Shown: positions 2,091 through 20,000 of the stretch, in pieces
How positions within the stretch are numbered: position 1 is the stretch's first letter
Layout of the letters: each line of letters begins with the position of its first letter
DNA from: Trichoplax sp. H2
Lineage: Eukaryota
Direction of reading: 5' to 3'
Length of the DNA: 20,000 nt
Assembly: GCA_003344405.1 (NCBI GenBank)
Contig: NOWV01000146.1
Coordinates: 171,667-191,666, forward strand
Made by a program: the position numbers and the translations under genes
The notes under the pieces: generated by a model
Seen by the model: only the letters and a program-made list of their open reading frames with translations
What the model was told of the DNA's origin: nothing
Databases searched by the model: none

Positions 2091-3426
2091 AGTAGGAAAT
2101 CTGCTAAATCTCCTTCTCCATCATCATGACTACAGCATTTAGTACAGTACTGTACATTTAGCGTGCAATAGGTGTACAGTAACTCCAGTTATCCGCAGGG
2201 ACCGCGTACACTATATGAAAGACAAATCAACAGGGCAAAGAAAAAGTATAACAGAGCTAATGTACTACTGTATATTGTGCATGAATTTATTTAAAAAGAT
2301 CCATAATCATAATCTAGACAGTTGTAGCATCGTCAGACGCGTAAAAATCACACAACGCATGCATTCACATTCTAAATTTATCTCCAGATAGTAGCTAGTA
2401 CATATCCGTGGGCTGTACTCCTAGTAAACAGCTTGATATATTTAAAACGCAATATTTAGGACTTTTTAAATGATCGTTTATTGGAATATTATCAGATTAT
2501 AGTTTACATATTTAATAAAGGCAAGGTACAGACCGCATAAAATGAGGTATATCTTTAATTGACATCTATCTTACTTCATGACCAGCTATACCTACATTTT
2601 TTTATGGATAGGGTCACATTATTAATAGGATTGGGTAACGTTCAATGTAGATATTGCACAAGCTATAGCTTCTACTCAATACTAATCTATCTTCTTTAAT
2701 TGCTAGATGATATTATATGACATCTTTTCATCATATGGGCTCAAGGTTAATTCTGCCAATTATTTGCAACTTTAATAAAGCCCACTTGGGTAATATAATA
2801 TTCCTTCCTGTGTACACGTCCTAAAAAAGAAATAAAAAAGTTTATCAATAAATACGCTATATTAACTATATATACAATAATCCTGACCGTAGTTATTGTT
2901 ATTGTTAGGCAAGTATAGCTAATAATATATTATTATTAACGACTAGAATACTGCTGGGTCTTGTGCATTATAATATTTTTAGAACGACTAGATTAAACTG
3001 CATCTAATAGTAACTCGCGACAAGTAGAGTACGCGCGTAAACGGATGCTCGACATATGGACTGCAAGAGGACCTACCTACCATTCATTCTAATGTAGCGT
3101 AAAGTAACATTTAAAATCTATTTCAATCCATAAGCAAAAAAAGCAAAATTGTTGGGTCTACTTTAATTTCATCCTTGTTCAATCTTTAATCCCATTAGTA
3201 TTCTTACTATACTGAAACATTGTATCTGGTATCAGGAACATCAAGAAAATATAAAAATAAAAGCAACCCAAATTTGATCCTAATGGTTGATATCAATTAC
3301 AGTATCTATCGTGTAAACTCATACAGCAGAAAGAAAGCTAAATTCTATTTTGAGCACAAAACTAACATTTGTATTCGATCAACTACAGTAGTACAAATCT
3401 TTACCAATAATTTGGCCGGTATAGGC

Positions 3427-4175
3427 TTAGGCTTTCGATTTTAGTATGTTTGAGCTATGATGGAGTTTCTCGGTATTGAATTTTTTATTATAACCATCTC
3501 TTTTCTGCGAAACCGACAATTTATCGTTCCGCTTGGCTGATAAAATGCCTTTGAAATGAGTACTGCCCTTTAATCTTAATTGCGGGTGATAATTGGTTTT
3601 TGATAATTTCGCATTAGAACGAAATTCTCTCTTGAACAAACTCAACCCAGGAATATTTTTATCTTCCTCTTCCTCTTTATGAGAAGTAGCAGTGGGATCG
3701 TGCCTAACATTAAATTCGCTAAATAATGGATTGTGTCTTTCGTTAAACCAACTAATGAGAGGGTCTTCTGACTCTTGTCTTTCCTCAAACCAACTAATTA
3801 AGGGATCTTGCCTTCGTTTCAAATTATTGAAATCTGCGTCTGAAAAGATGTGTCTCTTCTTAAACAGACTAATACCAGTATTAGAACGAGCTTGTCTTTC
3901 ATTAGATAAGCTAATACTAGCACCAGGAGGAGCTTGCCTATCGTTGAATAAGCTAATACCAGGTCCTTGTCTCTCATTAAATAAGCTAATACCAGGTTCT
4001 TGTCTCTCATTAAATAAGCTAATACCAGGTTCTTGTCTCTCATTAAATAAGCTAATACCAGGTTCTTGTCTCTCATTAAATAAGCTAATACCAGAGTCAG
4101 GAGGCGCCTGTCTTTTTTTAAACCAATTTATAATAGGTTCTTGATTGTTCTTGTATACATGACGATCAGTTATCT
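3427..4175 (-). CDS. Gene A exon 2: peptide repeats and C-terminus
   Basis: Open for 749 nt; extends the supplied ORF 3427..3822 upstream in frame to a TAG acceptor. Confidence 0.92.
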
Positions 4176-4444
4176 CTATTACGATGCAGTTAAAAAATAT
4201 TCAATACGAGTATGCAAGTAAATTATAAAGTAATCATATCAGTTGATTTAATCTACGACTAGTTAACTTCTAAATCATCGTTTCACTTAAAAATTGCAAG
4301 GAGCTTTGTCAATGAAGTATGGAGCATCGTTAATTTTTGTTTGCATAGTTATATACGATATATGCAATAGCGTATTGCTTTACCTTTGCATGTTGCGATA
4401 GCATTAAGGCCAATGATGGTAACAACTAATAGACAGATCTTCAT
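3427..4444 (-). CDS. Gene A: LF-type neuropeptide precursor, join(4444-4384, 4175-3427), 269 aa; resembles the placozoan LF prohormone
   Basis: Exon 1 (ATG at 4444) gives MKICLLVVTIIGLNAIATCK and ends G|GTAAAG. A 208-nt phase-1 intron (4383-4176) ends ...GTAATAG|. Spliced protein: MKICLLVVTIIGLNAIATCKEITDRHVYKNNQEPIINWF-KKR-QAPPDSGISLFNE-R-(QEPGISLFNE-R)x3-QGPGISLFND-R-QAPPGASISLSNE-R-QARSNTGISLF-KKR-HIFSDADFNNL-KRR-QDPLISWFEE-R-QESEDPLISWFNE-R-HNPLFSEFNV-R-...NIPGLSLF-KR-...KSKA*. Signal peptide plus repeated Gln-initiated peptides and basic cleavage sites. Family name is from recollection. Confidence 0.92.
3943..4094. repeat. 33-bp coding tandem repeat (QEPGISLFNER units)
   Basis: cttgtctctcattaaataagctaataccaggtt repeated about 4.5 times, nearly perfectly, without spacers. 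Confidence 0.95.
4384..4444 (-). CDS. Gene A exon 1: signal peptide
   Basis: 61 nt, MKICLLVVTIIGLNAIATCK plus 1 nt, basic-hydrophobic-small residue pattern, canonical GT donor, phase matches exon 2. Confidence 0.88.
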
Positions 4445-7400
4445 TTCGCCTAATCTTTCAATAAAAGCGTTATTAATATTGGACTATAAAAATATTTGCG
4501 AAATATGGTTCAAGTTCATACTTTGATAGTAGAGTAGTTACAGGTGAAATTATTTTTTAATCATTTGTTCAGTAAGATCTGTATAATTACACTATTTGCA
4601 GTTCTTAACTTAAAGTACAAGCAAAAGATTAAACAAATAATACTTGATTAATAAATTTACCTTATACACATACATTACATTTTTTTGTATATTAAATACG
4701 CATAAAATACTTATTCCAAAATATTCAAACTTTCTAAGATACGCTAACTTTTTAACAGTTACCTTCTGATAAATCCCTTAATTGGTATTGCTCAACTAAA
4801 CTGCAATATTTAACGAAAAAGTTGCAATTCGCCGCTATATATCTAAAAAGTGAACAAAAGAATTCATTCTTCCTAATCTATTTCTATTTAACTTTATCAG
4901 ACTCCACCTACCCGTACCTAAGTATAATTATGATAAATAGATAAAATAAAATTTTCTTAGCCACAATAGGTCATTTCATACTCTGGCCCAATCTGTCAGT
5001 AAATAAAATATTTCCCTGAAATACTCAACAGTGGCAAAATTAATAAAACCAAAGATCAATAGCAATAAATCTAATTATAACGATGATATGTATTTTATTT
5101 ATTCGCTAAGGCATACTATCCATTATTGTAACAGATAAATAGTAATACTGTGTTGCATCACTATATTTCAATCCTTAAGAAATTAAAAGCCATCTAAAAT
5201 GAAATATAATTAACTTACCTCTTTTGTTATGCTAGATTAATGTATTTGTAAATATAGTTATACTAAATACTGATTATAAGTAACGGATACACTGATCATT
5301 AGATTATATCTATGGACAATAATTTAATTTAATATAATGTTGAATTAATTGCTAAAAATGTTATATTAATTTTAAGGACGTATTTAACACCATAAAATTT
5401 TCAAAGTGAACTTTTCGTTATCAGAGAAGAGGAATGGCAGACTTTGTGTCTGACCATTTTTGACCTAAATTCTATCAAAGTATCTTGCCTAAAGTATTCA
5501 CGTTCAATAGAAACTGTTATAAATAGATTAATAAAGTTATCTATTCCACACTCACTTAATTTCATCATCACGTAAACCACAATTACAATTATTGTTGACC
5601 TTATTTTTAATTGTTTCATAATATCAACAATGGTCTGATTTACCAATATCTTATTATATATCAAACAGATTTATCTTGGATTTATTCATCTGAAAGGTAC
5701 AAAAAAAACTAAGAATCAACTGAAGAATATATAGAAGCTTAGGAAATTAATATTATGATTTACTAGATGCTTAGACAACAACAAAAATGCCTAACGGTAG
5801 CTCTATTTGTCATTATTATTATTGTCTAGAATGCCTAAGCTACTGTGTGTAAATAACTTAATAGAGAGAATGCTATCTTTACAGCAAGATACACAGCTGC
5901 AACTAGACCAATTTAAGGAACGTTATTTTACGCTCTCATTGTATTAATATTATCATGCTTTATTGCGTTTAGGAAGAAACATAGTTGGTAGAAAATGAGG
6001 TTTATATCTATATCCTAAAAAATTTCATCATTTTTCTGTTTATAGGTTAAGGTATATGTAATTATGTTATTAATTTAACCTTTTACTTATACATCACATC
6101 AAATCATTTTGAACAATAACTGTATTATACATGCCTAATAAACAGATTGTGCGAAGAACGCATTTGGAATTCTAAAATCTATATTTAATTATGATGTCAA
6201 AATCTTTTTCTATAGTGCAGTAATAATATATCATGGTTATATAATTTTTATCTGATTATTTAAGATAGAAAATTAATACAAAATGATTTGAAAGTTTAGT
6301 TGAGTTTATCATTACTTAAACCTTTGCATTATTATTCGAAAATTGAGTTTTAACCGTCATAATTAAACGAGTAGTTATAATCAATTTCAAATTTGCTACT
6401 GGCAATGACATAACATAAGTGATTGTAAACAGAAGGAAATTTTTATTTTGATCACAAGCAAGTTCATTTTTTATTACAAAAAAAATCTTAGCGAAAGAGG
6501 TGCAGGTGGATCTATCTTTCATAATTTCAATACTTGATTAAACAAATTAATTTCTGGAATTGTAAAAAGAAAGTTTCTGAAAAATTATTTTGTTTACATC
6601 TTATTGATAATTATTATAATAGAATTATTATTATAGACCACAAAATACATTTTTTTAGCAAGCAGATACTATTGTACTTAATTATATACATAAAGACAGT
6701 ATGATTTCATATTTGCTTCCATTGTCTAAATGGGATGAAAACCAATAAAATTTTCCATATCATATTATAAATATCTGTAAAAATCCACTGAAATAATCAT
6801 AAAGTGTGCCTGCAAAGTCCTGATAATCTCTATAATTATTACCAAGACTACTTGTATTTATTATAATGAAGAACTTAATACATATGTTACCATTCTAGTA
6901 TAAAACGGAACAAGAAAGCTATAAACGCGATAATAAGTAATGTCTGCTGCATATTAACATTTTATCGTTACCGCTAACGGTTAAGTATACAATCGAAATT
7001 TTTAGAAGTAAAATTACCTCCCCCTGGCAATAGTTATAGGATAATCATATTTGAACAGTTACCATAATTGAGCTTACAAATTGTGGAATTATCGGAGTTC
7101 TACTTGTATATCTGTATTGTTGAATCAGACAGGATAATCATATAAGTCAACTGGTTAAGCCTTCAGAAATACCTTAATAAAGCATCTAAGAATAGATATC
7201 GAGCTAAATATCAAAGGTATTAACATACTGTAGTGCAGTCTTTCATTTAACGTTTAGCGGACACGGAAGTATTGCTATTACAAGTCATTGAAATTTCAAC
7301 TAGCATCATAGCGGCATAATGCTTAAATATAGACACTTTTTTGTCTGTAAGGATTAAAGACTTATTGTTAATAAATCCTGTAACAAGATTCAAATATAGC

Positions 7401-10400
7401 TTATAGATTGAAATTAGTAATTCTCTAATGATCATATGGGATAAATATCATAAATAGGTGTGATAGTCAAGCCGCACAAGTATATAATAGAATTCCATTC
7501 TGTTATAATTTGTTTCTTATTTGGGTGAAGTATAGTGATCACATACAATAAAGTATCTCCTTATTTTTAGGCACCATAATCAATAGTTTATGTTTTCGGT
7601 TGTGAACTATTAGACCACCTGCACCCTTTTCGAGCGTAATACCAATATTAACAAATGAAATACTAGAAAAATATGCATTGATTTAACCGCAAATTGCTCA
7701 TTATGAGTCCTTAATAGAACCTTCAATTACTCTTGCTCGCCTGTAATTTAAATGATCTGATGGAAATAAATACAACTAAACTTTCACTACATTTATTACA
7801 ATTTTACTCACCACTTAGTTTTATCAATAAACTATTATCTACTTCGTTATATTTACTATATTTACTTTAAGCAAATTAGCAATTTACGTGTAGAACTTTC
7901 AGTACAATTGTACTATTACTTTGATCGTGATTTGGGATGTGTATATGTCCTCTACAGTACATCTCCACATTCATTTATTTTTTTACTTACCTATCTTTAC
8001 AATGACAACGCCATTAAGGATTTAACGCTAACTAATAAGACGGTAAACAGATAATATACTTTATTATTGGCGTAAGGTACTTCAGTAAAATTGATGGCTG
8101 ATAATCATTTGCTCGCCTTGTTATTTTAGAGTGTAGGAATGACTTTGGAGCATAGCATGTCATGGAGAGCCTATAGTACATATAAATGGAAAGAGGCCTG
8201 TAATTATCAGTGGTTTTTAACTCCCCCACGGAAATAATAATTGTATTCTACATCGATAGTTGAAATCTGCATTCCATTTCAATTTGCAAATTCTTTGCCC
8301 TCATGGTCTATCGTTTAGAATCATGATTCCCTAGCAGTAGAATTACTATGTCTAAAATATTATTTATAGAGTAATTGTAAATTTGGCAGGTGAAACTGAT
8401 TTTATTAGACTCTTATTTACTCATAAGTAGGACTGGATAAAGCAGCTTTATTTTACAATAACGGCAAAAGCAAGTATTCCAACGGAAGTAAACCAACTTC
8501 ACATTGGGAATTTCCGAGAAGTAAAAACATAAATCTTTGTAACCAATTAACGAAATCTCCTAAAAGGATTATAGTATTGTTAGTCATCGAATGTAAGACC
8601 TTCTCTACACTTGCAGTATATTTTTTCGGACTACTATCGTGTCTAGACGAGTCGTTTGTATTGCTATTACCTATTTTTATTTTATTACACAAATCTGATA
8701 TTTAAACTAACCTTTTCATTTTGAAAAGAACGTTCATTAAATTAATTTATTTTCCGCATTGACCCTTGCCCTTATACGAAGAACTTAATGTCATCTCGTC
8801 ATCCTGGCCTCTGGCCCTATAAATGGTTCCAGTTTTAATATCTAGGCTAATGGATTATAATAACCAGTAATTTATTGCCTTGTATTGCTATGTATAAAAT
8901 TAAAAGTAACTAAATTTGTAATCGTTATTGCACACTGCTCTGATCCGTAATAACCTCGTTATCGGTTTACCCTCAGCACTTATTGTACTGTATAATCTGA
9001 TAAAATAATGTGGAATACTCGTATATCCATTAAAAAGTTACACCTTTAATGCCTTCTATTTTATAAGTTTCGGCTTATAACAAGGCCAATTCAATTGCTA
9101 CGGAGAGCTGTAAGATGATTTAGTTAGAATCGAAAATAAAAATATTGTCTATTGCATTTCAGGTTGCTGTCGACAAGTTCTACAAGTTATCTAATCTAAA
9201 TACTCAATTTCATTTCACCTGTTTAAATTCTAAGTAACCCTGTCATTGAAATATATTGCATGCTAATACCGTCACAATAAGAACTCTTATAAAACACCAT
9301 ATCCGATTTCCAATGATTTGCTCATTTTAATTGCTATCAGAATAAACTCAATTAAAATAAATAGTTACAGAAATAGAAGTAAGAAATCAACGAATGGTTG
9401 ATGAATCTATTTAAATAATTTCAGTTCATTAATTCGTGTGATAAAGTCACGTAGGATTTACCTTAGCCATTAAAAACATATTTTGAAGTAATTTACGTTT
9501 ATGAGTTGTTAAAATAATTGCAAAAGGAAATGGAATTTTATTTTACAGGGTAAGAAATCTAGCGTAATGTTGGACCATACATATCATCAATCTTTTTGTA
9601 CGGAATATATTGCTTTATACACGTATCGAGGGAATCACAAAAGGAATCTGTGCTAAGGACCAAGTTATAATCCACAAGTATTTTAACCAATAACAACCCT
9701 CTTACGGTAATACCAAAGTTGAAAATTGATTTTAGTTAAATTTCGTTTCTTTTCTAACTAATAAGCTCATTCTGGATTATAAATACAAGCACCACTTACA
9801 ATACCTACGACTTTTAATATCCTTGCAAAGCACTATTAAATCTACTGCATCGCAGTAAACTTGGAAAATAGAGCTACTACACCGGTCTTGATCCCCTACT
9901 GTGAAAATCTATGATTGTGCTTAAAGGAAGTCAGTGTAAAACAAAATCTAAAAATCTGCAGCAATACCAAATTGTAAGCACAGTTGCAATATCAAACTAT
10001 TTTCTAGAACAAATAATAAGAACTAACGACTCTATTTTCTTTTACTTTATCACATAGATAGGCTGCGCTTAGACCTAGATGTCTATGGCTGCAAATACGA
10101 TACCTCCGACTACAGTTGCGGATATCAATGTCAAATACTACTCCATTAAACTGTCTAGATAATAAACCGGCAAGCAACCTTCTTTAAGACGATCTTTTAC
10201 CTTGCCATGTTATTCAAACTGAAAATAATAAGAAATATAGTGATCTTAACGTCGAAATCTGCAGATGCTACATCTTGACAAATCAGCGGGTAAAAAGTGT
10301 TTCCTTGAAGATATTGCATCTAATAGTCAGCTATTCCTAATTACGTGTAGAACTCGAATTTAGGCGGCTAAGGATTAACGTATGATAGAAAACTCTGTTG

Positions 10401-10667
10401 CATGAGCTAAAAAATTATTACAACATGCATTTCTTTTTCTATGATTTTTATCTACTGTTATGGTACAAAACCTGCTATGTACTCCTACCATAATGTAAAC
10501 GCTGAACGTGGGATTGCTTGAGCAATAACTGCGTAATGAGTGCTACCATCCGCGACGCTATTACTAGCTACAGAATAAACTTTTGCTCATAAACTAGTAT
10601 TTTTTCTTTTAGCAGGAATGAATGCTACAATACGGTATCAATCCATCTCATTAGTTTCATGCTGTTG

Positions 10668-10925
10668 CACAATCTTGTTCTTTATTGTTGTTATTTCTTA
10701 AATAAATTGAAAGAATCGGACTGACCGACATGCTATCAAAATAAAAGACTTGGTGGGCAATGTTAAGCTAACGTGTAGTCTTGTTGTTGTTGTTGTTGTT
10801 TATTGCTGTTATTTCTTAAATAAATTGAAGGAATTTGACCGATCGAAATACTACCAAAATAAATTACTTGATGGGCAATGTTAAGCTAACGTGCAATCTT
10901 GTTGTTTATCGTTGTAATTTTTAAA
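10668..10925. repeat. 118-bp direct repeat (about 2.3 copies) with internal (TTG)n
   Basis: tgggcaatgttaagctaacgtg at 10754 and 10872; ttatttcttaaataaattgaa at 10691 and 10809. Confidence 0.9.
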
Positions 10926-11935
10926 CATATTTTAGCCAGAAAAATAAGACGTGGCATGATGATATGGTAATGTTATTAAAAAAATGTCCGTAAGTGGAAG
11001 CCTGGATCGCCCGAGTCAAATACCTTACGGCTTTGATTGAGAATGTTCGGAAATTAGTTGGATGCTAGGCTGAGCTCAGTATCACTTATTCGCAACTTGG
11101 TTTATACCGATTTTATCACAAATAATAATTAAAATTGGCAATACCTTACCTCATAAACATTTTGCAGTAATAGTTTACTCGACGAGAAATGCACAAAGGT
11201 GAAGATCTTACTAATCAAAACTATTCTTGGGAGAACATGGAAGGCTTTTTTTACACATGGTACCGAACTATAGTTTCCAATCATGTCAGAGCAACATCGT
11301 CTTTAAATATTGCCGACAATATCCTTGATGACAATGATTTACTCATAAACAATTTCTTTATTTTACATTGAATATGATTGTTGTTAAAATGGCACACTGA
11401 GATTCCATAGAAGAATGCAGAAAAAATAGAATCTTTTCTGTAGGAGTCATTTGCATAGCGTAAAGGAAAAGCCTTTCACTCTATTTGTCCTAATGGTGAA
11501 CTGTCCTTTCCTGGCCGAGCTAAGAAAAATGGACATTTCAAAAAGTAAAATTGATCACAATCAAAAAAATTTAGAAGGTTGTTAAACATTATACAATATA
11601 CTAGATAGGATAAATTTTAAAAATTGAATACTGTTACCACACTATGAGCAACGAAAATGCATAACTCGTATCATTTTTAATACTAACACTAAAGGCGAAT
11701 GAATTGCCAATTTGGTAAGTTTTCAACTCTCTAGTTTAAACTAAGAACGACTCATGGAGAAAATTAATCCCTGCACTCTAATTTGCTGCTTAGGGACTCC
11801 TTATCAAAAGCAATTTTCATCGATAAAATTGATAATTTTTACAGTAGCATGGGAGTTTTCCGATGCCTCCATCATGGTTGCATCTGTTTAACTTGCACTT
11901 GGAAATAAAGGGAGTAATAACTGAGACTTTCCGGT

Positions 11936-12010
11936 CTCCCCATTTACTCTCTCTCTCTCTCTCTCCTACTATATAATCCCCGGGGATTAGAGAGAGAAAG
12001 TAGACGGTGG
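11936..12010. repeat. Inverted repeat: perfect 16-bp palindrome flanked by (CT)n and (AG)n arms
   Basis: taatccccggggatta at 11974-11989; (ct)9 at 11947-11964 is complementary to gagagagaaagta on the right. Confidence 0.8.
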
Positions 12011-12202
12011 AAAAAGGATTAATACTTTACTTAAGTAGTTTCTGGTCATAAAGAGAAACCAAAATACGAAAAAATAAATTTTGCAAAAGAACCAAGAATT
12101 GAAACCCGTTTCGTTCTGAAATCAATGTTCTAGATTTTACAAGTGCAGTATTTTGATGGTTAACTTAATTGATGATCCATAGGTCATCAATAATGATTTA
12201 AC

Positions 12203-12610
12203 AATTCACACAAATACTTCAATTTGGATTTTTTTTGAAATCTGCATACTTCCACTTATTCTTATAAAAGATATATCTAAATTTATTCCTAGCCAATTAA
12301 CAAGAGAGAATTCTATAGTAGCTTTAGCGCGATAGTTGTAAACCTATTTCAACAAGGAGAACTATAGCAAACTTTCAGCTTAGAGATGTGCATCACCTTG
12401 TGATCAGGATCCCGACAGAACAGTGAATTCACACAAATCTTTCACTTTGGGCATCGTTTTAAAATCTAAACACTTCCATTAATTCTTAAAACGTCAAGAT
12501 AAAATCCAAATCTATTCCAACATGGTGAGCTGGAGAGAATTCTGTATTAGCTTTAGCACTGCATATGCAAATCGATTCAAACAAAAAGAACCGAAGCCAT
12601 CTTCAGGCTA
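12203..12610. repeat. Diverged direct repeat, period about 223 bp, 2 copies
   Basis: aattcacacaaat at 12203 and 12426; gagagaattct...tagctttagc in both copies. Confidence 0.85.
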
Positions 12611-12859
12611 CTGGATATCAGGACCATTATCATCGGGATTTCTGTAGAACAGCAAACACCACATATGTGTAGAATATCTTAAGCTAGACAACATTTCTTT
12701 TAAAAGTTGGTTTCTTCATCAAGTATGTGAGTTTACTAGAGCTGAGATATCTACAAAGTATTCTTATTACTCAATTTAACGGATAGGCGATGATTAAATA
12801 ATATTCTTTACAAGTCCAAATTGCTAACTCCTATGTTTAAAGCTCACTCTACATTATTT

Positions 12860-13810
12860 AATGTATAGAGACTCGCGAAAGTCTGTTGAGACCGGCTTCC
12901 TCATATGCGAGAAATTCTCCTTGATAATATATCCTATTTAGTTTTCCTCAGCTATTTTTAAATCTTTCTGTTGTTAATATACAATCAATCTCGTGTATTT
13001 AGCCATGAGGATTAGCTCTTTTGCAGAAGTCAGTTCCTTTCTCGATCTAGATTAAATCATTGTAGAGAGACTCGCAAAAGCGTGATTGAGCAAAGAACCC
13101 TGAGATAGTTGACTCTATTTCATGTACGGTCTTCTTGACCTTACTGCTGTAGTATAAATTAAGCCTTATTAATATTGGTAGTAATCCCTTCTAATAAGTA
13201 AAAATTTTAAATGTTTTGACGTTATACGAAGCCTGTATTTGATGAAATATCAATTTACTGCAATTATCCATGAGCTAACTTCGCTGTGTAAGACTACTTA
13301 CAGACCAATTTCTTTCTTGATCAAAATTAATCCATGTACAGAGACTTCCAAAAGTACAATTTGATCAAGAAATTATAAGGTACGAGAAAATGCATGACTG
13401 AGAAATTCCTCTTGGCGATATACGTATTCTATACGGTCTTATTGATATTATTACTGTAGTAAGTCAAGATTTTTTAAACATCATGTTGTGATGCATAGAC
13501 AGAGTTAAGGAAATATCAAGTTAATGTAATTGCCCACGAGCTGGCTTTTCTTTGTAAGACCCTTTGTATAAGACCAGTTGCTCTCTTAACATCTTGCTGC
13601 TAGTCATAGACAGAAATCAATGAAATATCTAGTGCAAATTAGTGCACATTATTCATGAGCTAGCTTCTCTGTAAAAATCTTTTACAGGCTCATTTCTCTC
13701 AATCCAAAGTAATCAGTATAAACAAACTTTCAAAAGTGCGATTTGACCAAAGAAACTTAAGGTACAAGGAATGCCTCCATGACAGTGTATAATCAGTTCC
13801 GTCTTATTGG
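12860..13810. repeat. Diverged repeat cluster, 4-5 partial copies
   Basis: gta.agagact..caaaag-like motif near 12862, 13061, 13335 and 13716; ca(t/c)gagct near 13269, 13536 and 13654. Confidence 0.75.
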
Positions 13811-14291
13811 AAAGTAACTATTTCGTTTAGTAATGATTAATCATAATCCATTCTAGTAAGTAAAGATCGCTAACATCATGTTGTTATACGTAGATTGCAT
13901 TTCACGAGCTTTGCAAAGTCTAGTAATCAAGCAGTCTAAGTAATGCCTGCTCTTTTTGTGAATTGTATCAGAAAGAACGTCCAAGGAGTACAAGTAGAAT
14001 CGATTTACTTGTCGATTTCCATTAGAAAGGCACATACTTACGGAGCACTACTCGATCTCATAAAGTGTTCAGTTGACATGTTCTAAAAGTATTATCATAT
14101 AAGAAATGAACTGTGATCAACTAAACTACAGTACAACAAGGTTATATTTGCTCCGTTTTCAATGTGCTGCCACGTTATGATTAAACAAGGTAAAGTGACT
14201 TTTCATGATATTTCTAGTCCATTTCAGTAACTATGAGTGTAATAAAAGCATTCTTAATTAAGTATCCATTTTTTCAATGCCAACCCTAACC

Positions 14292-14630
14292 TTAACTTTT
14301 ACTTATACTGTGGTTTTAGCCTTTTTTGTATGACATATCTCGGCTTGTAGCAGATACCCATCAAAACTGCCAATTTACTGCTCCATCTTGGCTATGCAAT
14401 TCTTCACACGGAGTCAATAGAAATATGCTTTCTTGAGTTTATTGTAATTAATTACGTGTCACTATAAGTAGTAGTAAGAGTTTTAACTTTTACTTATTCT
14501 AGGCCGTTAGCGTTTTTCCGTACAACATATTGCAGCTTGTAGCTGATACCGATTAAAAAACTGTCAATTTACTGCTAAATCGTAGTTATGTAATTTTTCA
14601 CATGCACTCCATCAAAACATGCTTTCTTAA
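14292..14630. repeat. Diverged direct repeat, period about 191 bp, 2 copies
   Basis: ttaacttttacttat at 14292 and 14483; gcttgtagc.gatacc and caatttactgct in both copies. Confidence 0.88.
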
Positions 14631-14746
14631 TGCTTTCATAGATTACTGGTCAAAAATCGAGTCATTCTACTATTTACTCAATTGTAATATTGCATAGCAA
14701 CTCGAGAAGAAAATATTGCACAACAGGAATACGAGTAAACACTTCT

Positions 14747-14752
14747 TTTATT
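14747..14752 (-). promoter_or_regulatory. Candidate polyadenylation signal of gene B
   Basis: First AATAAA I found on the minus strand downstream of the stop (about 450 nt); weak evidence in AT-rich DNA. Confidence 0.3.
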
Positions 14753-15202
14753 TCATTGGTAATTCTTATATGATCTTATTTCGCTAGAGAGCTAATACGT
14801 AGACGCCTAGTTCAATACATTCACATAGTTTATGGCATCAATTTGTATAACTTGATTATCGTTATTTTCTTCCACTACTATACTTATTGGCATCTGTATG
14901 GTTGCTTTCGCTTAAATAATGACTATAGATCATGACTATATCATTTAAATTTATGTATTACGATTGATAGATTAAGGCTAAAGTATCTACGGAAGATGGA
15001 TAGTTGAGAATAACGTATAAACAACATGACTACCTCAACGATAGACAACTGCAGTAGTAAAGCATGTAGCCAATACGAGATAAAGCTATAGCATTATTAT
15101 CCACACTTGGTCAATCTAACTGGAGATTTTGTTACACATTTGAATTACCATTAACCGTTCAATGGGAAAGGAGGATGTTGGATAATCCTTCGGTTGAGAC
15201 TT

Positions 15203-15337
15203 TCAAGCCATTTTTTCCGATCGACTAGATAAATCACCAAGGAAAATTTTCTTAAATGGGTTAGAGTTAGGTATGTAAGATAGCCTTTTCTGACCTCTTT
15301 TAAAAGGGATAAATCCTTGCTTTTCTGTATCTCTCTG
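15203..15337 (-). CDS. Gene B terminal coding exon (Q)RDTEKQGFIPF-KR-GQ-KR-LSYIPNSNPF-KK-IFLGDLSSRSEKMA*
   Basis: Pyrimidine-rich tract, tandem TAG/CAG acceptor, three dibasic sites, TGA at 15205-15203. Confidence 0.8.
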   Translation of the reverse strand, partial: QRDTEKQGFIPFKRGQKRLSYIPNSNPFKKIFLGDLSSRSEKMA

Positions 15338-18300
15338 CTACAGTGAGGATAAAATAAAGCCATGTTTACATTAAGTAAGCTAGGATTAGCATTTTTGTAA
15401 TGAACTTAAAAATACTGAAGATTTCATCGAATAACTTCTCTATAATATATACCATTCATCTGTAACTAGGTATCACTTATTTATTATCGACATGAGACTT
15501 ACTGAAAACCAAGATACTACATTCTTTGCTTCCGATTTCTCACTATCATCATCTTGCTATCAATAATAATGCATGAAGAAAGAAATTGGTTAACATTAAT
15601 GGCAATCGATCATGATTTTGATACCTATGCTAATTATTCTCTACTATTACAAATTTACAATTAGCAGTTTGCATTAACCATTTTTAACCAGATGTGTACG
15701 AATCGATCAAAAAATGGCAATAACAGTTAATTACGTGATCACAACTCGGGGCTAGGGTTCCTAATTCTAGCTTGTTATTAGTCCATTTTACAAATTTTCT
15801 AGAACAAATTTAAGGTAACTAATGAATCGCTTCAATTTGGGTCTATAAATCCTTGTTTCTACGATGGTTGATGCCAGAAAAGTACAGTAAGAGGTCTACA
15901 GAATTTGCTAATATATGAGTAAACGTAAGTACGATATCGTCAACATTTTTATTAATGCAGATCAAATATATTTGTAATAGATGATTTTCTCTCTTATTAA
16001 ATACAAGAAAGGGTTTTTTCAAAATGCGATGATAACCTCTCCTAAATATTGAAAGTGGTAATATTCCTATCAATCAGTCTTTTTCTCCTACATAGTTACT
16101 TCTTGGAACAACTAGTATATACTATGGAGTATGCCGAATCTTTTAAATATTACTTTACGCCAGATTAATTCAATCTTTTTTAGTCTAAATTATTCCTTCA
16201 ATTTCTAGTATACAAATAAGCTAAAGCACTACTGTACGTATATTCGCATAATTAATAACTCTTTATAACAGATTAAATAGGTTTTAAATTCTTTGCTCTT
16301 TCGTTAAGTACATTAATTGGTCTTTCAAAATCCGATCATAGCCTATCCTAATATTTAAGAGTTTAATATTCCTACAAATCAGTATTGTTCTTCTATAATA
16401 GTTGATCCTTAAAATAGCTAGTTTAAACAAAAAGGACTATGTTGCATCGATTGAACATTCCCTTACAGGAGATAAAATCTGTTACAATCTATCATTTACC
16501 CTTTACTTAAATAGAATCTTACGAGTATCGAAATCAGATAATAGCCTATTCTAAATATTTAACCTTTGTTAATAAGTTTACAAAATTGCTACTTGAGTAT
16601 CACAGAACTGTTAGTATAAGCTATAAACTATGAATTCAATATTTTTTGTGGAAATGAAATCGATCATTTACCCTTTTCTTAAATAGAATCATTGGAATTT
16701 CAGAATCAGATGATGGGCCATCCTAAATATTTAACATTTCGACATATCTGATAAGCGTTTCTCATCAATTATAACGATTCTATAAATTTCTATACTGCAC
16801 TGCAGTATGGCTAATATAAACTAAAAACAGTATGTTGAACATTATCTACTGGAAAGGGAGTTTATATAACCTATCATTTACCCTCTTCCATATAATAATC
16901 GGGCGTTTAGAATCAGCTGATAGGCTATCCTAAATATTTAATATTTCGATATACCACATAAGTTTTTCTCAGCAATCATAACAAGCCTACTAAATTCCTA
17001 CACTAAACCACAGAACGGCAAATATAGAGTAAGAATTATGTATTGAATATTTTCCATCAGAGACTAATCTTTTATAGCCTATCATTTATCCTCTTCTTAA
17101 ATAGGATCATTGGAGTTTTAGAATCAGATGATAGGCTATTCTAAATGTTTAATATTTTGACATGCCTGATGAGCATTTCTTACTAATCATTAACCGCAGA
17201 ACGGCTAATATACTCTTAAACTAAGAACTAAGTAGTAAATATTTTCTATTTGGAGGCTAAATCTTTAATATCCTATCATTTGCTCTATTTTTGAATAGAT
17301 TAATTGAAGTTTTACAATCGGATGATAGCTTATCGTAAATATTTAGGGTTTTGGCATACCGGGTGAGTATTTCTATAAGATCATGTTAAGCCTACGCAAC
17401 TACTACACTAGTATAAAGTGAAAGGCTGTATTTTAGTTTATTGAGAGATCAGATGGCTACTATTTTATACTTGAGTATTTTCCTAAAGTAAACGAATGGG
17501 TTATTAAATTTCGATAATGATTCTATCCTTTAATATCATAAAACTTTGATATGCCATACTATCTCGGTATCCCTTTCTTAGCCTATTTTTTACTAATTAA
17601 AAATTAATTATATACAGAGGTGATAATCATACACGTAAGCGTTTTCGGCAATAAGATTTGTCGGTAGGCTCGAAACGGTTCGTAAAATCATATGATAAAT
17701 TTATAAAACATCTAACTAGTTTAGGAGTTGCTGTAATGAAATTATTAATTTAAATCGTAATGATTTAACTCCTTATCTTAATTTAAAAATAGCCTTGTAA
17801 TACGGGATAGTACACTTTGAATACAGATAGCATTGACGGGACTTATTTTCAAATGCATCATCAGATAATGTAGACCCTATTGCGTGATTTACCTCTTTCT
17901 TGAATAAGGGAGTGTCAGCTTTCTCCGAGAGTTCACCATCTTGATCCTGCGATTTTCGACAAAAATAAAGCTATGTTATTGATGCGAAGCAGTTTTATAA
18001 TCATACTTGGTCAACAAATTGCGATTCTGCGTAAAATGTTATTTCAGTTAATCTGGTTCTCGGTACACAACTTACCTCTTTTTTAAATAAGGGATTGCCA
18101 TAAAGTATAGAATTTCCGTTTTGAGCCTTTTATTAAAGTTTTATGATCATACTTGGTCAACAAATTGCGATTCTGCGTAAAGTGTTATTTCAGTTAATCT
18201 GGTTCTCGGTACACAACTTACCTCTTTTTTAAATAAGGGATTGCCGTAAAGTATAGAATTTCCGTTTTGAGCCTTTTATTAAAGTTTTATGATCATACTT

Positions 18301-19620
18301 GGTCAACAAATTGCGATTCTGCGTAAAATGTTATTTCAGTTAATCTGGTTCTCGGTACACAATTTACCTCTTTTTTAAATAAGGGATGGCCAATATTTGA
18401 GGGATTTTCACTTCGAGCCTTTTAATAATATATTCAAAAGATAGCTATGTCAGCCGTGTAAAATCCTTTATAAAAATTGTTGACTAAATCTTTAAAATGT
18501 AATTTCCTTTTAAAATATAATTACAGAATAATTAAAGCTACTTCTTTCTTAAATAAGAGATTGCCTATTAGTGGGTTATATTTATCCTTTATGAAGATAA
18601 TGATAAAATCGCAATAGAAATTAACTATATAGTAAAGGAGGAATGTCTACAATCGCTCTTGATATTGTAGATATTCAGGCAATATAGTATGTGACATCGT
18701 ACAATGTACGAATGAAGTTATGGCGTACTGGGAAATAAACACGTTTAAATATGATTCGCTATTATCACTGCTATCTTCCAAGTACTGCATTTGCAAGTAG
18801 CTTCATAAGATAGTTTAACAATGCATTCAATTGCAACAGTGTATAGCTCGTGAAATGAATTAAAATAAATGCTTTGAGTAATCAACATCTTTGCGTGTAT
18901 TCAATAAAAACTGCCATTAATCTATTTTATATCCACTTATTATTTATATACTATAACATTAATAAGAAATAGCGTTATGATTCGCTAATAAAAGCAGTAA
19001 AATTTCTATCAAGGTTATTGTTAACTTATATCTTTTCTGAACAAAGCATGCCCTATTTGAGAATCCTATCCATTTGCATTAAGGGTGTAGATAACTTATA
19101 CATTTTAAATAACCCTAAGATACTATACAATTTAGCCGTTAGCATACACAGTACTGTACAGTTGCTATCGAATTTATAGTTAACTTACATCTTTTCTGAA
19201 CAAAGGATACCCATCTTGAGAATCCTACATAAGAGATAACACAATCGTCACTATATGTATATTCTGTTAATTATAATATCGTTAACTATGGAAACTGTTT
19301 AACTATCAGCTCGTATACAATTGCATTAAAGGTGTAGATAACTTATGCTTTTTAAGTAACCCTTAGATACTATACAATTTAGCCGTTAGTATACACAGTA
19401 CAGTTGCTATCAAATTTATAGTTAACTTACATCTTTTCTGAACAAAGCATGTCCTGGTTGAGAATCCTATACAATTACATTAAGGGTGTAGTTAACTTAT
19501 GTTTTTTAAGTAACCCTTAAATGCTATACAATTCAGCCGTTAGCATACACAGTACAGTTACTATCGAATTTATAGTTAACTTACGTCTTTTCTGAACAAA
19601 GCATACCCATCTTGAGAATC
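15203..19620 (-). CDS. Gene B: second LF-type neuropeptide precursor built from one-peptide micro-exons, 5'-partial (about 215 aa in window)
   Basis: Eleven phase-0 AG/GT-bounded micro-exons plus a terminal exon join to DSQDGYALFRKD|DSQPGHALFRKD|DSQDGYPLFRKD|DKYNPLIGNLLFKKE|ARSENPSNIGHPLFKKE|AQNGNSILYGNPLFKKE|AQNGNSILYGNPLFKKE|DQDGELSEKADTPLFKKE|DSLSADSKRPIIIWKR|DGPSSDSEIPMILFKKR|QDDDSEKSEAKNVVSWFS|QRDTEKQGFIPFKRGQKRLSYIPNSNPFKKIFLGDLSSRSEKMA*. Synonymous variation occurs in the LFKKE codons. No signal-peptide exon found in the window. Confidence 0.85.
15503..15556 (-). CDS. Gene B micro-exon QDDDSEKSEAKNVVSWFS
   Basis: ttgatag|54 nt|gtaagt; SWF motif shared with gene A peptides. Confidence 0.8.
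16672..16722 (-). CDS. Gene B micro-exon DGPSSDSEIPMILFKKR
   Basis: atttag|51 nt|gtaaat. Confidence 0.8.
16882..16929 (-). CDS. Gene B micro-exon DSLSADSKRPIIIWKR
   Basis: atttag|48 nt|gtaaat. Confidence 0.75.
17893..17946 (-). CDS. Gene B micro-exon DQDGELSEKADTPLFKKE
   Basis: atcgcag|54 nt|gtaaat. Confidence 0.8.
18076..18126 (-). CDS. Gene B micro-exon AQNGNSILYGNPLFKKE (copy 2)
   Basis: ataaaag|51 nt|gtaagt; differs from copy 1 by one synonymous TAC/TAT change. Confidence 0.75.
18222..18272 (-). CDS. Gene B micro-exon AQNGNSILYGNPLFKKE (copy 1)
   Basis: ataaaag|51 nt|gtaagt. Confidence 0.75.
18368..18418 (-). CDS. Gene B micro-exon ARSENPSNIGHPLFKKE
   Basis: ttaaaag|51 nt|gtaaat. Confidence 0.75.
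18542..18586 (-). CDS. Gene B micro-exon DKYNPLIGNLLFKKE (weaker splice sites)
   Basis: cataaag|45 nt|gtagct; open and phase 0, but AAG acceptor and weak donor. Confidence 0.55.
19030..19065 (-). pseudogene. Dead micro-exon DSQIGHALFRKD
   Basis: Intact acceptor and frame; donor is ATAAGT instead of GTAAGT. Confidence 0.7.
19189..19224 (-). CDS. Gene B micro-exon DSQDGYPLFRKD
   Basis: tatgtag|36 nt|gtaagt. Confidence 0.85.
19431..19466 (-). CDS. Gene B micro-exon DSQPGHALFRKD
   Basis: tgtatag|36 nt|gtaagt. Confidence 0.85.
19585..19620 (-). CDS. Gene B micro-exon DSQDGYALFRKD
   Basis: tatgtag|36 nt|gtaagt. Confidence 0.85.
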
Positions 19621-19793
19621 CTACATAGCAGATAACACAATTATCACTGTATATATATATATACATTTTTTTTCGATTAATTATAATATTGTTAACTACG
19701 GAAATTGTTTAACTATCAGCTGGTGTACAATTGCATTAAGAGCGTAGATAACTTATATTTTTTAAATAGCTATCAAATTTGTAATCAACTTAT

Positions 19794-19828
19794 ATTTTTC
19801 GGAACAAAGCATTCCCTATTTGAGAATC
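19794..19828 (-). pseudogene. Dead micro-exon DSQIGNALFRK
   Basis: 35 nt (1-nt deletion) and ATAAGT donor. Confidence 0.7.
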
Positions 19829-20000
19829 CTACATAGGAGATAACACAATTATCACCTTATATGTTTTTCATTAATTATTTAAATGTATTAGCTAATTTAG
19901 GATGAAAAAAGTTACTGGATAAAGGGAATTGCTACTTTATAAGGATAGTCCATGATTTGATAAATTATACACCGTAAGGCAATATCAAAGCCATGATCAC

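Follow-up and report, generated by a model that had tools for sequence, protein, structure and literature searches.

When a gene carries many short exons that each encode one secreted peptide, which of these exons are used, and what becomes of the rest? The question is raised by a stretch of 20,000 nucleotides (nt) from Trichoplax sp. H2 (GenBank assembly GCA_003344405.1, contig NOWV01000146.1, positions 171,667 to 191,666 of the forward strand), the whole of which is called the window here. Trichoplax is a placozoan, that is, an animal without neurons whose behaviour is coordinated by secreted peptides. The array of peptide mini-exons at 15990-19828 of the window is part of the known Trichoplax LF propeptide gene, annotated as TrispH2_008150, and a preliminary description made from the letters alone had taken it for a record of the birth and death of peptide exons. 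The reading that we favour, with a probability of about 0.8, is that of a modular LF gene in which seven cassettes are used and ten are spliced out, the unused copies decaying inside the introns.

Mini-exon cassettes of the LF gene

The exon-like units form three tandem sub-arrays, A, B and C, over 15990-19866 on the minus strand, to which all cassette and exon coordinates given below refer. There are 17 copies at 15990-19828: five of the A family (36 nt), five of the B family (45-54 nt) and seven of the C family (48-52 nt). They were detected by local alignment, with one unit per family and its splice-site flanks as the reference; this gave 17 matches on the minus strand at a score of at least 40, against none on the plus strand, and the best score in five block shuffles was 30 or lower for each of the three references. 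Family profiles used with nhmmer recovered all 17 copies at E values from 1.7e-19 to 2.4e-12. The next matches were weak and ran across families (E 0.018-0.05), and the C profile also matched the repeats of the neighbouring LFNE gene (E 0.035). Because of these weak cross-matches, the sequences suggest that all of the cassette families are related.

Units with an open frame have a length that is a multiple of three, and they consist of a variable part, L-F, two basic residues and one acidic or basic residue, which reads DSQxGxxLFRKD in the A family, ...(P/L)LFKKE in the B family and ...SSDSxxPMILFKKR, with variants, in the C family. The live cassettes are 36, 36, 36, 51, 51, 51 and 54 nt long and all in phase 0, which makes them symmetric in-frame modules, and in every one of them the LF is followed by KK or RK. 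In the mechanism that we propose, each phase-0 mini-exon of 36-54 nt would act as one unit comprising the variable part, L-F, the dibasic site (KK or RK) and one acidic residue; with such modules, any number could be spliced together in frame. Since skipping would cost one peptide without a shift of frame, the loss of a cassette would be cheap, and unused copies could stay in place and decay.

The identity of the gene is supported by published peptides. Among the synthetic peptides listed in a preprint on the peptides of placozoans are LF (DDSQDGYALF) and LFNE (QEPGISLFNE); according to the same preprint, animals to which LF was applied flattened and rotated. The sequence DDSQDGYALF is that of A2 (DSQDGYALFRKD) preceded by the terminal D of an A-type exon. 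As A-type exons end in D and A2 supplies the rest, this peptide forms across an A-A junction, and a junction of this type, with A3 joined to an A2-like exon, is present in the RNA contigs. TrispH2_008150 is named 'LF_precursor', and the adjoining TrispH2_008149 'LFNE_precursor', in Table S5 of Najle et al. (2023), from which we draw on the entries for these two genes. Seven of its eight peptide rows for TrispH2_008150 map to B1 or A3: five are forms of (SE)NPSNIGHPLF from B1, NPSNIGHPLF and SENPSNIGHPLF among them, and two are pyroGlu-QPGHALFR from A3. The eighth, the de novo row KLRLPFQR, maps nowhere in the LF cassettes. The mass spectrometry in these entries backs the peptides of A3 and B1 only, and all of the peptides so mapped stop before the K of the basic site. 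Those of B1 begin inside the exon, after E or R, and that of A3 after S, so N-terminal processing takes place neither at the exon boundary nor at a dibasic site; the synthetic DDSQDGYALF may be longer than the mature peptide of the A2 type. No cassette has the Gly before the basic site that we looked for as a sign of amidation (all read L-F-K/R-K), and no amidation is listed for the LF-gene peptides in those table entries.

Cassettes in the mRNA and cassettes in the introns

Assembled contigs of two RNA runs (X19 and X21) and two DNA runs (X2 and X13) were compared with positions 3000-20000. X19 is recorded as RNA, and X21 was taken as RNA from its spliced joints, its poly(A) tail and its lack of cover between genes; apart from the A array, the depth of both DNA runs is even, at about 26-36. 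The mRNA is a chain that leads from an upstream exon through A2, A3, an A2- or A4-like exon, B1, B2, B3 and B4 to the exons 15556..15503, 15337..15295 and 15224 to about 14731, where T-run loose ends at 14730/14731 mark the poly(A). Six joints, all of them GT..AG on the minus strand, are present in both RNA runs (19466/19585, 18418/19585, 17945/18075, 15556/17893, 15337/15503 and 15224/15295), and a further one, 18271/18367, in X21 only. The upstream exon, which ends in ...FKKEDL, is seen as a 19-nt loose end in X19 only and is not in the window. The window very probably holds the 3' four-fifths of the LF gene, its 5' exon or exons lying beyond base 20000.

Seven cassettes, A2-A4 and B1-B4, are found in this mRNA. 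A2 (19585..19620), with an AG acceptor and a GTAAGT donor, takes part in the joints 19466/19585 and 18418/19585, and its joint to A3 (19431..19466, DSQPGHALFRKD) has depths of 310 and 259. A4 (19189..19224, DSQDGYPLFRKD) has intact splice sites and is probably live. B1 (18368..18418, ARSENPSNIGHPLFKKE) is live by both RNA joints and mass-spectrometry peptides. B2 (18222..18272, AQNGNSILYGNPLFKKE) is joined to B1 in X21, with loose ends at 18221; B3 (18076..18126) encodes the same peptide as B2 and is joined to B4 (17893..17946, DQDGELSEKADTPLFKKE), which has joints on both sides in X19 and X21. The chain then continues into the live exons at 15503..15556 (QDDDSEKSEAKNVVSWFS) and 15295..15337 (43 nt, QRDTEKQGFIPFKR), and into the last exon (14731..15224, VDRKKWLESLNRRIIQHPPFPLNG), where a stop codon at 15151-15153 is followed by the 3' untranslated region and the poly(A).

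The assembled mRNA lacks the other ten of the 17 copies, seven with disabling lesions and three (B0, C3 and C4) without. The joint from B4 to 15556 skips 2336 nt (15557..17892), with depths of 44 (X19) and 186 (X21), and a single intron therefore holds the entire C array. A5 and B0 lie inside the intron before B1, and A1 inside that before A2; A1 is skipped, since an X19 RNA contig joins A2 to upstream letters that are absent from the window. A1, A5, B0 and C1-C7 would accordingly leave the transcript as intron sequence, and the idea that the introns preserve unused peptide exons is borne out by their absence from the mRNA. Routine inclusion of the dead exons, which would have spoken against it, was not seen: contigs of both RNA runs skip the flagged copies.

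The forms seen around the A4 position need a word of their own. After A3, one RNA contig 'goes back' into an A2-like exon, and another enters a form lacking 3 nt; the same 3-nt gap occurs in the X2 DNA, placed in A4 at 19212. Two forms, ending in GAC and GAT, are joined to B1, and these pairs of forms, after A3 and before B1, are seen in X19 contigs. They look like alleles rather than exon skipping, and probably reflect allelic or copy-number variation of a live A4-type exon.

Two of the unused copies, C3 and C4, look intact. C3 (16882..16929, 48 nt, DSLSADSKRPIIIWKR) has its AG acceptor and GTAAAT donor intact, and C4 (16672..16722, DGPSSDSEIPMILFKKR), with the same splice sites, is intact throughout, which brings the intact-looking copies to nine (A2, A3, A4, B1-B4, C3 and C4); neither C3 nor C4 appears in the RNA contigs. 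B0 (18542..18586, DKYNPLIGNLLFKKE), found at E 2.4e-12 and skipped in both RNA runs, combines an open frame and an AG acceptor with the weak donor GTAGCT, and is a copy that the preliminary description had not listed. It could be argued that C3, C4 and possibly B0 are still in use as facultative cassette exons, though only in rare cell states, life stages or conditions, and that the C array is in part a reserve of alternative peptides. In the two C copies the frame is indeed open, AG and GTAAAT are in place and a basic cleavage site is preserved (KR in C3, KKR in C4), B0 retains its frame and AG, contigs cannot demonstrate absence, and in the Hydra preprohormone-C gene the composition of peptide copies is varied by alternative splicing, according to the passages on that gene in PMC8638164. 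On the other hand, neither RNA run has a joint that leads to B0 or to a C cassette. The depth of X21 exceeds 2000 in the 3' exon, yet is 0 over 16041-17741, which we do not count as proof of absence, and the X19 contigs that cover parts of the C array (15944-16786 and 17364-17922) are unspliced and colinear only. The C-derived strings MILF, PIIIW and SDSEIP are likewise not in the published peptide table entries, whose database may lack these cassettes. Taking these points together, we consider facultative use unlikely.

It should be pointed out that several observations weigh against a simple division into seven used and ten discarded cassettes. The RNA evidence consists of assembled contigs, which drop rare isoforms and show presence, not absence; C3, C4 or B0 may be used at a low level or in particular cell types. 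The skipping of C3 and C4 finds no explanation in their splice sites: the live B1 and B4 have the same donor, GTAAAT, and the pyrimidines upstream of C3 and C4 (10 of 20) are not fewer than those of the live B2 and B3 (8 of 20); as a divider of used from unused cassettes, upstream pyrimidine content fails. The differences among the C exons amount to 0.39 at third codon positions against 0.29 and 0.24 at the other two, an excess that hints only weakly at coding constraint in the past. The structure of the A array is not clear-cut: one RNA joint goes back, from A3 to an exon like A2, the A4 allele of the window itself (with Pro) is absent from the RNA contigs, and the DNA depth is 1.5-3 times that of the surroundings, with 80 against about 28 in X2 and 48 against about 31 in X13 for the bin at 18876-19442. 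The 5' end and the signal peptide of the gene lie outside the window. With regard to the C array, which would once have been expressed, either it was silenced as a block and acquired its lesions later, or C3 and C4 are used only in special conditions.

Lesions, duplication and haplotype differences

What, then, happened to the seven copies with lesions? The losses of donors and acceptors, the stops and the indels named in the preliminary description are all present at the exon ends concerned. A1 (19794..19828, DSQIGNALFRK) is 35 nt long, with a 1-nt deletion (a -1 frameshift) and the donor ATAAGT. A5 (19030..19065), in the intron between the last A exon and B1, has the open frame DSQIGHALFRKD and again the donor ATAAGT. 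C1 (17284..17334, DKLSSDCKTSINLFKNR) has lost both its acceptor (AC) and its donor (GC, in GCAAAT), and C2 (17090..17140) combines the intact frame NSLSSDSKTPMILFKKR with the donor ATAAAT. C5 (16500..16550) has an in-frame TAA between an intact AG and GT, C6 (16297..16347) an in-frame TGA and, in the window, the donor GCAAAG, and C7 (15990..16041), at 52 nt (+1), has stops and the donor GA. The count of at least seven dead cassettes stands with these seven lesion-bearing copies. Their interleaving with live ones is seen in the A array only; in the C array no copy was seen live, because the intact C3 and C4 lie in the same 2336-nt intron that is spliced out in both RNA runs.

The preliminary description went further and proposed that copies with intact frames had been silenced by a single donor change. 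In its literal form this means that each dead copy was put out of use alone, by one splice-site mutation, with its neighbours in the array staying live. A5 and C2 do differ from live-looking copies mainly by the change of the donor from GT to AT, and the dead A1 and A5 flank the live A2-A4. Silencing by a single donor change is nevertheless not demonstrated, since intact copies are skipped as well: C3 and C4 are left out of the mRNA with both splice sites in place. C5-C7 bear several lesions each, and the ATAAGT that A1 and A5 have in common with four short remnants suggests that the dead state was inherited. Copy-by-copy silencing thus appears somewhat unlikely, and the lesions may instead be decay that followed silencing.

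The short remnants lie at 19501-19523, 19347-19369 and 19100-19122, with a fourth near 19747-19766, and all have ATAAGT donors. They exist, as had been claimed, and belong to a repeated intron unit, each A unit holding a 23-nt remnant followed by ATAAGT; the TAG acceptor ascribed to them is present literally, directly before GG, in just a single case. Their likeness is to the 3' end and donor of A and B exons; it is modest overall and reaches 17 of 19 identical positions at best, which none of 300 shuffles attained; nhmmer did not find them at E <= 10. Two more eroded copies that had been suspected fared less well, as 17520-17481 gave only E = 1.8 and 15790-15842 had no nhmmer match.

The history of duplication can be read from the likeness of the units. 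The 146-nt units of B2 and B3 are 98% alike, and the B1 unit has 89% likeness to both. In the A array the repeats are nested, and short units (A2 and A4; 154 and 159 nt, 90% alike) alternate with long ones (A1 and A3; 208 and 242 nt, 86% alike), which have about 90 extra nt in common. The C units are 51-75% alike. This divergence is far greater than the difference of about 0.7-0.9% that separates the window from the DNA runs, which places the origin of the C array long before these lineages split. Exon and intron would have multiplied together by unequal crossing-over, giving rise to the sub-arrays A, B and C and to the nested higher-order repeats in A. A1 and A5 have in common an Ile codon and the ATAAGT donor, and the four remnants have this donor too; judged from these shared letters, dead copies were probably duplicated as dead copies, together with live ones. 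If the dead state was duplicated in this way, the events of death would be fewer than the dead copies.

One might also suppose that the unused cassettes are kept for the control of splicing, as decoy splice sites or as spacing elements of a large intron. The motifs next to the acceptor and donor (aaatatttag and gtaaatgat) are the best-kept parts of the C units, which would fit such a role; recent descent from working exons would leave the same pattern, the differences between haplotypes hit a donor and key codons, and no positive evidence of function was found. We regard this explanation as very improbable.

Two DNA runs of different studies bear on whether the lesions are real. From 14463 to 18029, about 3570 nt, X2 and X13 each have one contig that is colinear with the window and differs from it at 26 and 31 letters, respectively, so the C array is real and common to both of these coded organisms. 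That the GT-to-AT changes and the other lesions are errors of sequencing or assembly in a repetitive region would accord with the signs of collapse or allelic mixing in the A array (raised DNA depth, contig breaks and the joint that goes back). Since the DNA contigs of X2 and X13 pass colinearly through the C array, and the splicing in the RNA agrees with the lesions, error is scarcely credible as the explanation, as far as the listed differences (40 of 218) cover the splice-site bases.

The haplotype variants were read from 40 listed of 218 differences, which do not cover every splice-site base. At 16295 the C6 donor is GT instead of GC in X2 and X19, at 16308 a Leu of C6 becomes Phe, and at 19034 the second basic residue of A5, the Lys of its dibasic site, becomes Ile in X2 and X19. 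Variants in the unused copies thus fall at positions that would matter in a live exon, which is the mark of relaxed constraint. As to the suggestion that silenced copies could be live in other haplotypes, the donor of C6 is indeed restored in X2 and X19, yet C6 carries a stop; at the donors of A5 and C2 there is no GT variant among the 40 listed differences. Variation also touches the last coding exon (15151-15224), where the places 15158, 15170 and 15176 differ in X19 and X13. All three are non-synonymous in the frame as read (N>S, P>L and H>R) and fall within 8 codons of the tail IIQHPPFPLNG, and therefore a live C-terminal peptide region differs between haplotypes.

How much of this was known? 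The LF gene itself was, as was the arrangement of one peptide per exon, from Hydra and Xenopus; what is added here is the disuse of over half of the copies and the variation of copies between haplotypes. In the literature covered, neither the exon structure of this gene nor dead peptide exons in it were found described, and an array of unused copies that differs between haplotypes did not come up either; outside that literature lie Nikitin (2015) and the table of precursors in the Varoqueaux preprint, which may bear on the point. In the entries of Najle et al. (2023, Table S5), the orthogroup of TrispH2_008150 has one T. adhaerens gene and is given for two Trichoplax lineages only, with 'ortholog absent' in Hoilungia, and the annotated LF model is marked 'nSP', that is, without a signal peptide. 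A profile of 13 window cassettes had no match among proteins of 115-2000 or 6-114 amino acids, a search without a Trichoplax positive control. The first row of that profile was a 65-residue frame through B4 and its intron: the frame of B4 stays open for 39 codons into the intron, in a stop-free stretch of 65 codons at 17776-17970, and the RNA contigs gave no evidence that this intron is retained. The single match of an exhaustive protein search, an unrelated repeat protein of 824 residues, corresponded to the intron-derived part of the profile and was rejected. The frame that contains the C-terminal 24 residues had no match in the protein database; all of these blanks are weak evidence that we did not use, and an exact 38-nt pattern from B2 and its donor had none in metagenome contigs, also left out of the evidence.

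These results have consequences for the study of LF peptides. The set of predicted LF peptides hinges on which mini-exons are included in the gene model. Given this dependence, the 'nSP' mark on the annotated model and the failure of the protein searches to find any cassette protein, lists of LF peptides and the databases used for mass spectrometry may be incomplete. The LF locus lets us see a peptide repertoire change in the DNA itself, as whole exons of one peptide each are gained, lost or left to decay, with a record of the turnover left inside introns and haplotypes visibly differing. A more far-reaching view, which we put forward tentatively as a possibility, is that the LF gene is a young, fast-turnover library of cassettes, in which crossing-over makes and kills exons, haplotypes differ in copy number, peptide and splice state, and C3 and C4 are a standing reserve or exons of rare states. 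If so, clonal lineages would secrete different mixtures of LF peptides, and C3 and C4 could be recruited again or be used in rare cell states.

The neighbouring LFNE gene and comparison with known systems

The gene closest at hand for comparison is LFNE (TrispH2_008149), on the same strand as LF. Its exon is one long open reading frame (ORF) at 3427..4200 of the minus strand, with 257 codons and no Met, in which the 33-nt tandem repeat GISLFNERQEP occurs in about five copies along with units of the WFKKR-, SLFKKR- and SLFKRE- types. The LFNE peptide QEPGISLFNE is repeated within this ORF, which also encodes the published LFNE_precursor peptide APPGASISLSNE. RNA contigs cover 3404-4063, and a 178-nt loose end at 3404 in X21 suggests a splice after the stop codon; upstream exons of LFNE were not found. 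A single transcription unit of LF and LFNE was considered and rejected, the LF mRNA having its poly(A) at about 14731 in both RNA runs.

Across the 10-kb spacer between the two genes (4134-14339) there is no RNA cover in either run except for a 163-nt X21 contig at 8870-9032 (depth 5). In the DNA runs the spacer shows many 255-nt loose ends and small insertions, and a joint in X13 skips 5015 nt (6978 to 11994), which points to structural differences between haplotypes in this part. At 10675-10932 there is a 118-nt tandem repeat of two copies that are 80-86% alike, each reading on the minus strand TAG and then ...SFNLFKK and a stop, like a terminal LF-type unit; it has no RNA cover, and its matches to the C profile are not significant (E about 3). 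Further away, at 1177-1700, a 179-nt tandem repeat (2.9 copies, 90% alike) lies in the most GC-rich part of the window (about 0.40-0.43).

LFNE is like LF in its strand, in an -LF- core followed by a cleavage context and in being expressed in peptidergic cells. It differs in that all of its copies lie in one exon as a 33-nt tandem repeat, and the entries of Najle et al. (2023, Table S5) assign it to another orthogroup and another peptidergic cell type.

A likeness in architecture is found in the GRFamide preprohormone-C gene of Hydra, in which seven of ten exons hold a single copy of a peptide each (Koch, Hauser and Grimmelikhuijzen 2021, PMC8638164). Going by the passages of that paper on this gene, it has one peptide copy per exon in tandem units of exon and intron, as LF does; a peptide is completed across an exon junction, like that at the A-A junction of LF; and its transcripts vary in their content of peptide exons. 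The Hydra peptides are of the GRF type, without apparent relation in sequence, and dead copies in introns are not described in those passages, in contrast to LF, which leaves 10 of its 17 copies unused. The caerulein and magainin genes of Xenopus laevis also have their peptide exons in tandem arrays, which were put down to unequal crossing-over (Roelants et al. 2013, PMC3731216, in the part concerned with these arrays). Their near-identical young copies resemble B2 and B3 of LF; with their 'quasi-zero' divergence, they are unlike the LF array as a whole, in which copies are 51-98% identical, encode different peptides and have in many cases decayed. The likeness of LF to the Hydra and Xenopus genes is one of architecture alone.

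In a wider frame, tandem exon duplication was reportedly described by Kondrashov and Koonin in 2001 as a source of alternative exons or pseudo-exons. There, as in LF, a duplicated exon is said to lie beside its parent, with one of the copies not constitutively used. Such duplications reportedly most often give mutually exclusive pairs in folded proteins, whereas the LF gene is an open-ended array of free-standing peptide modules.

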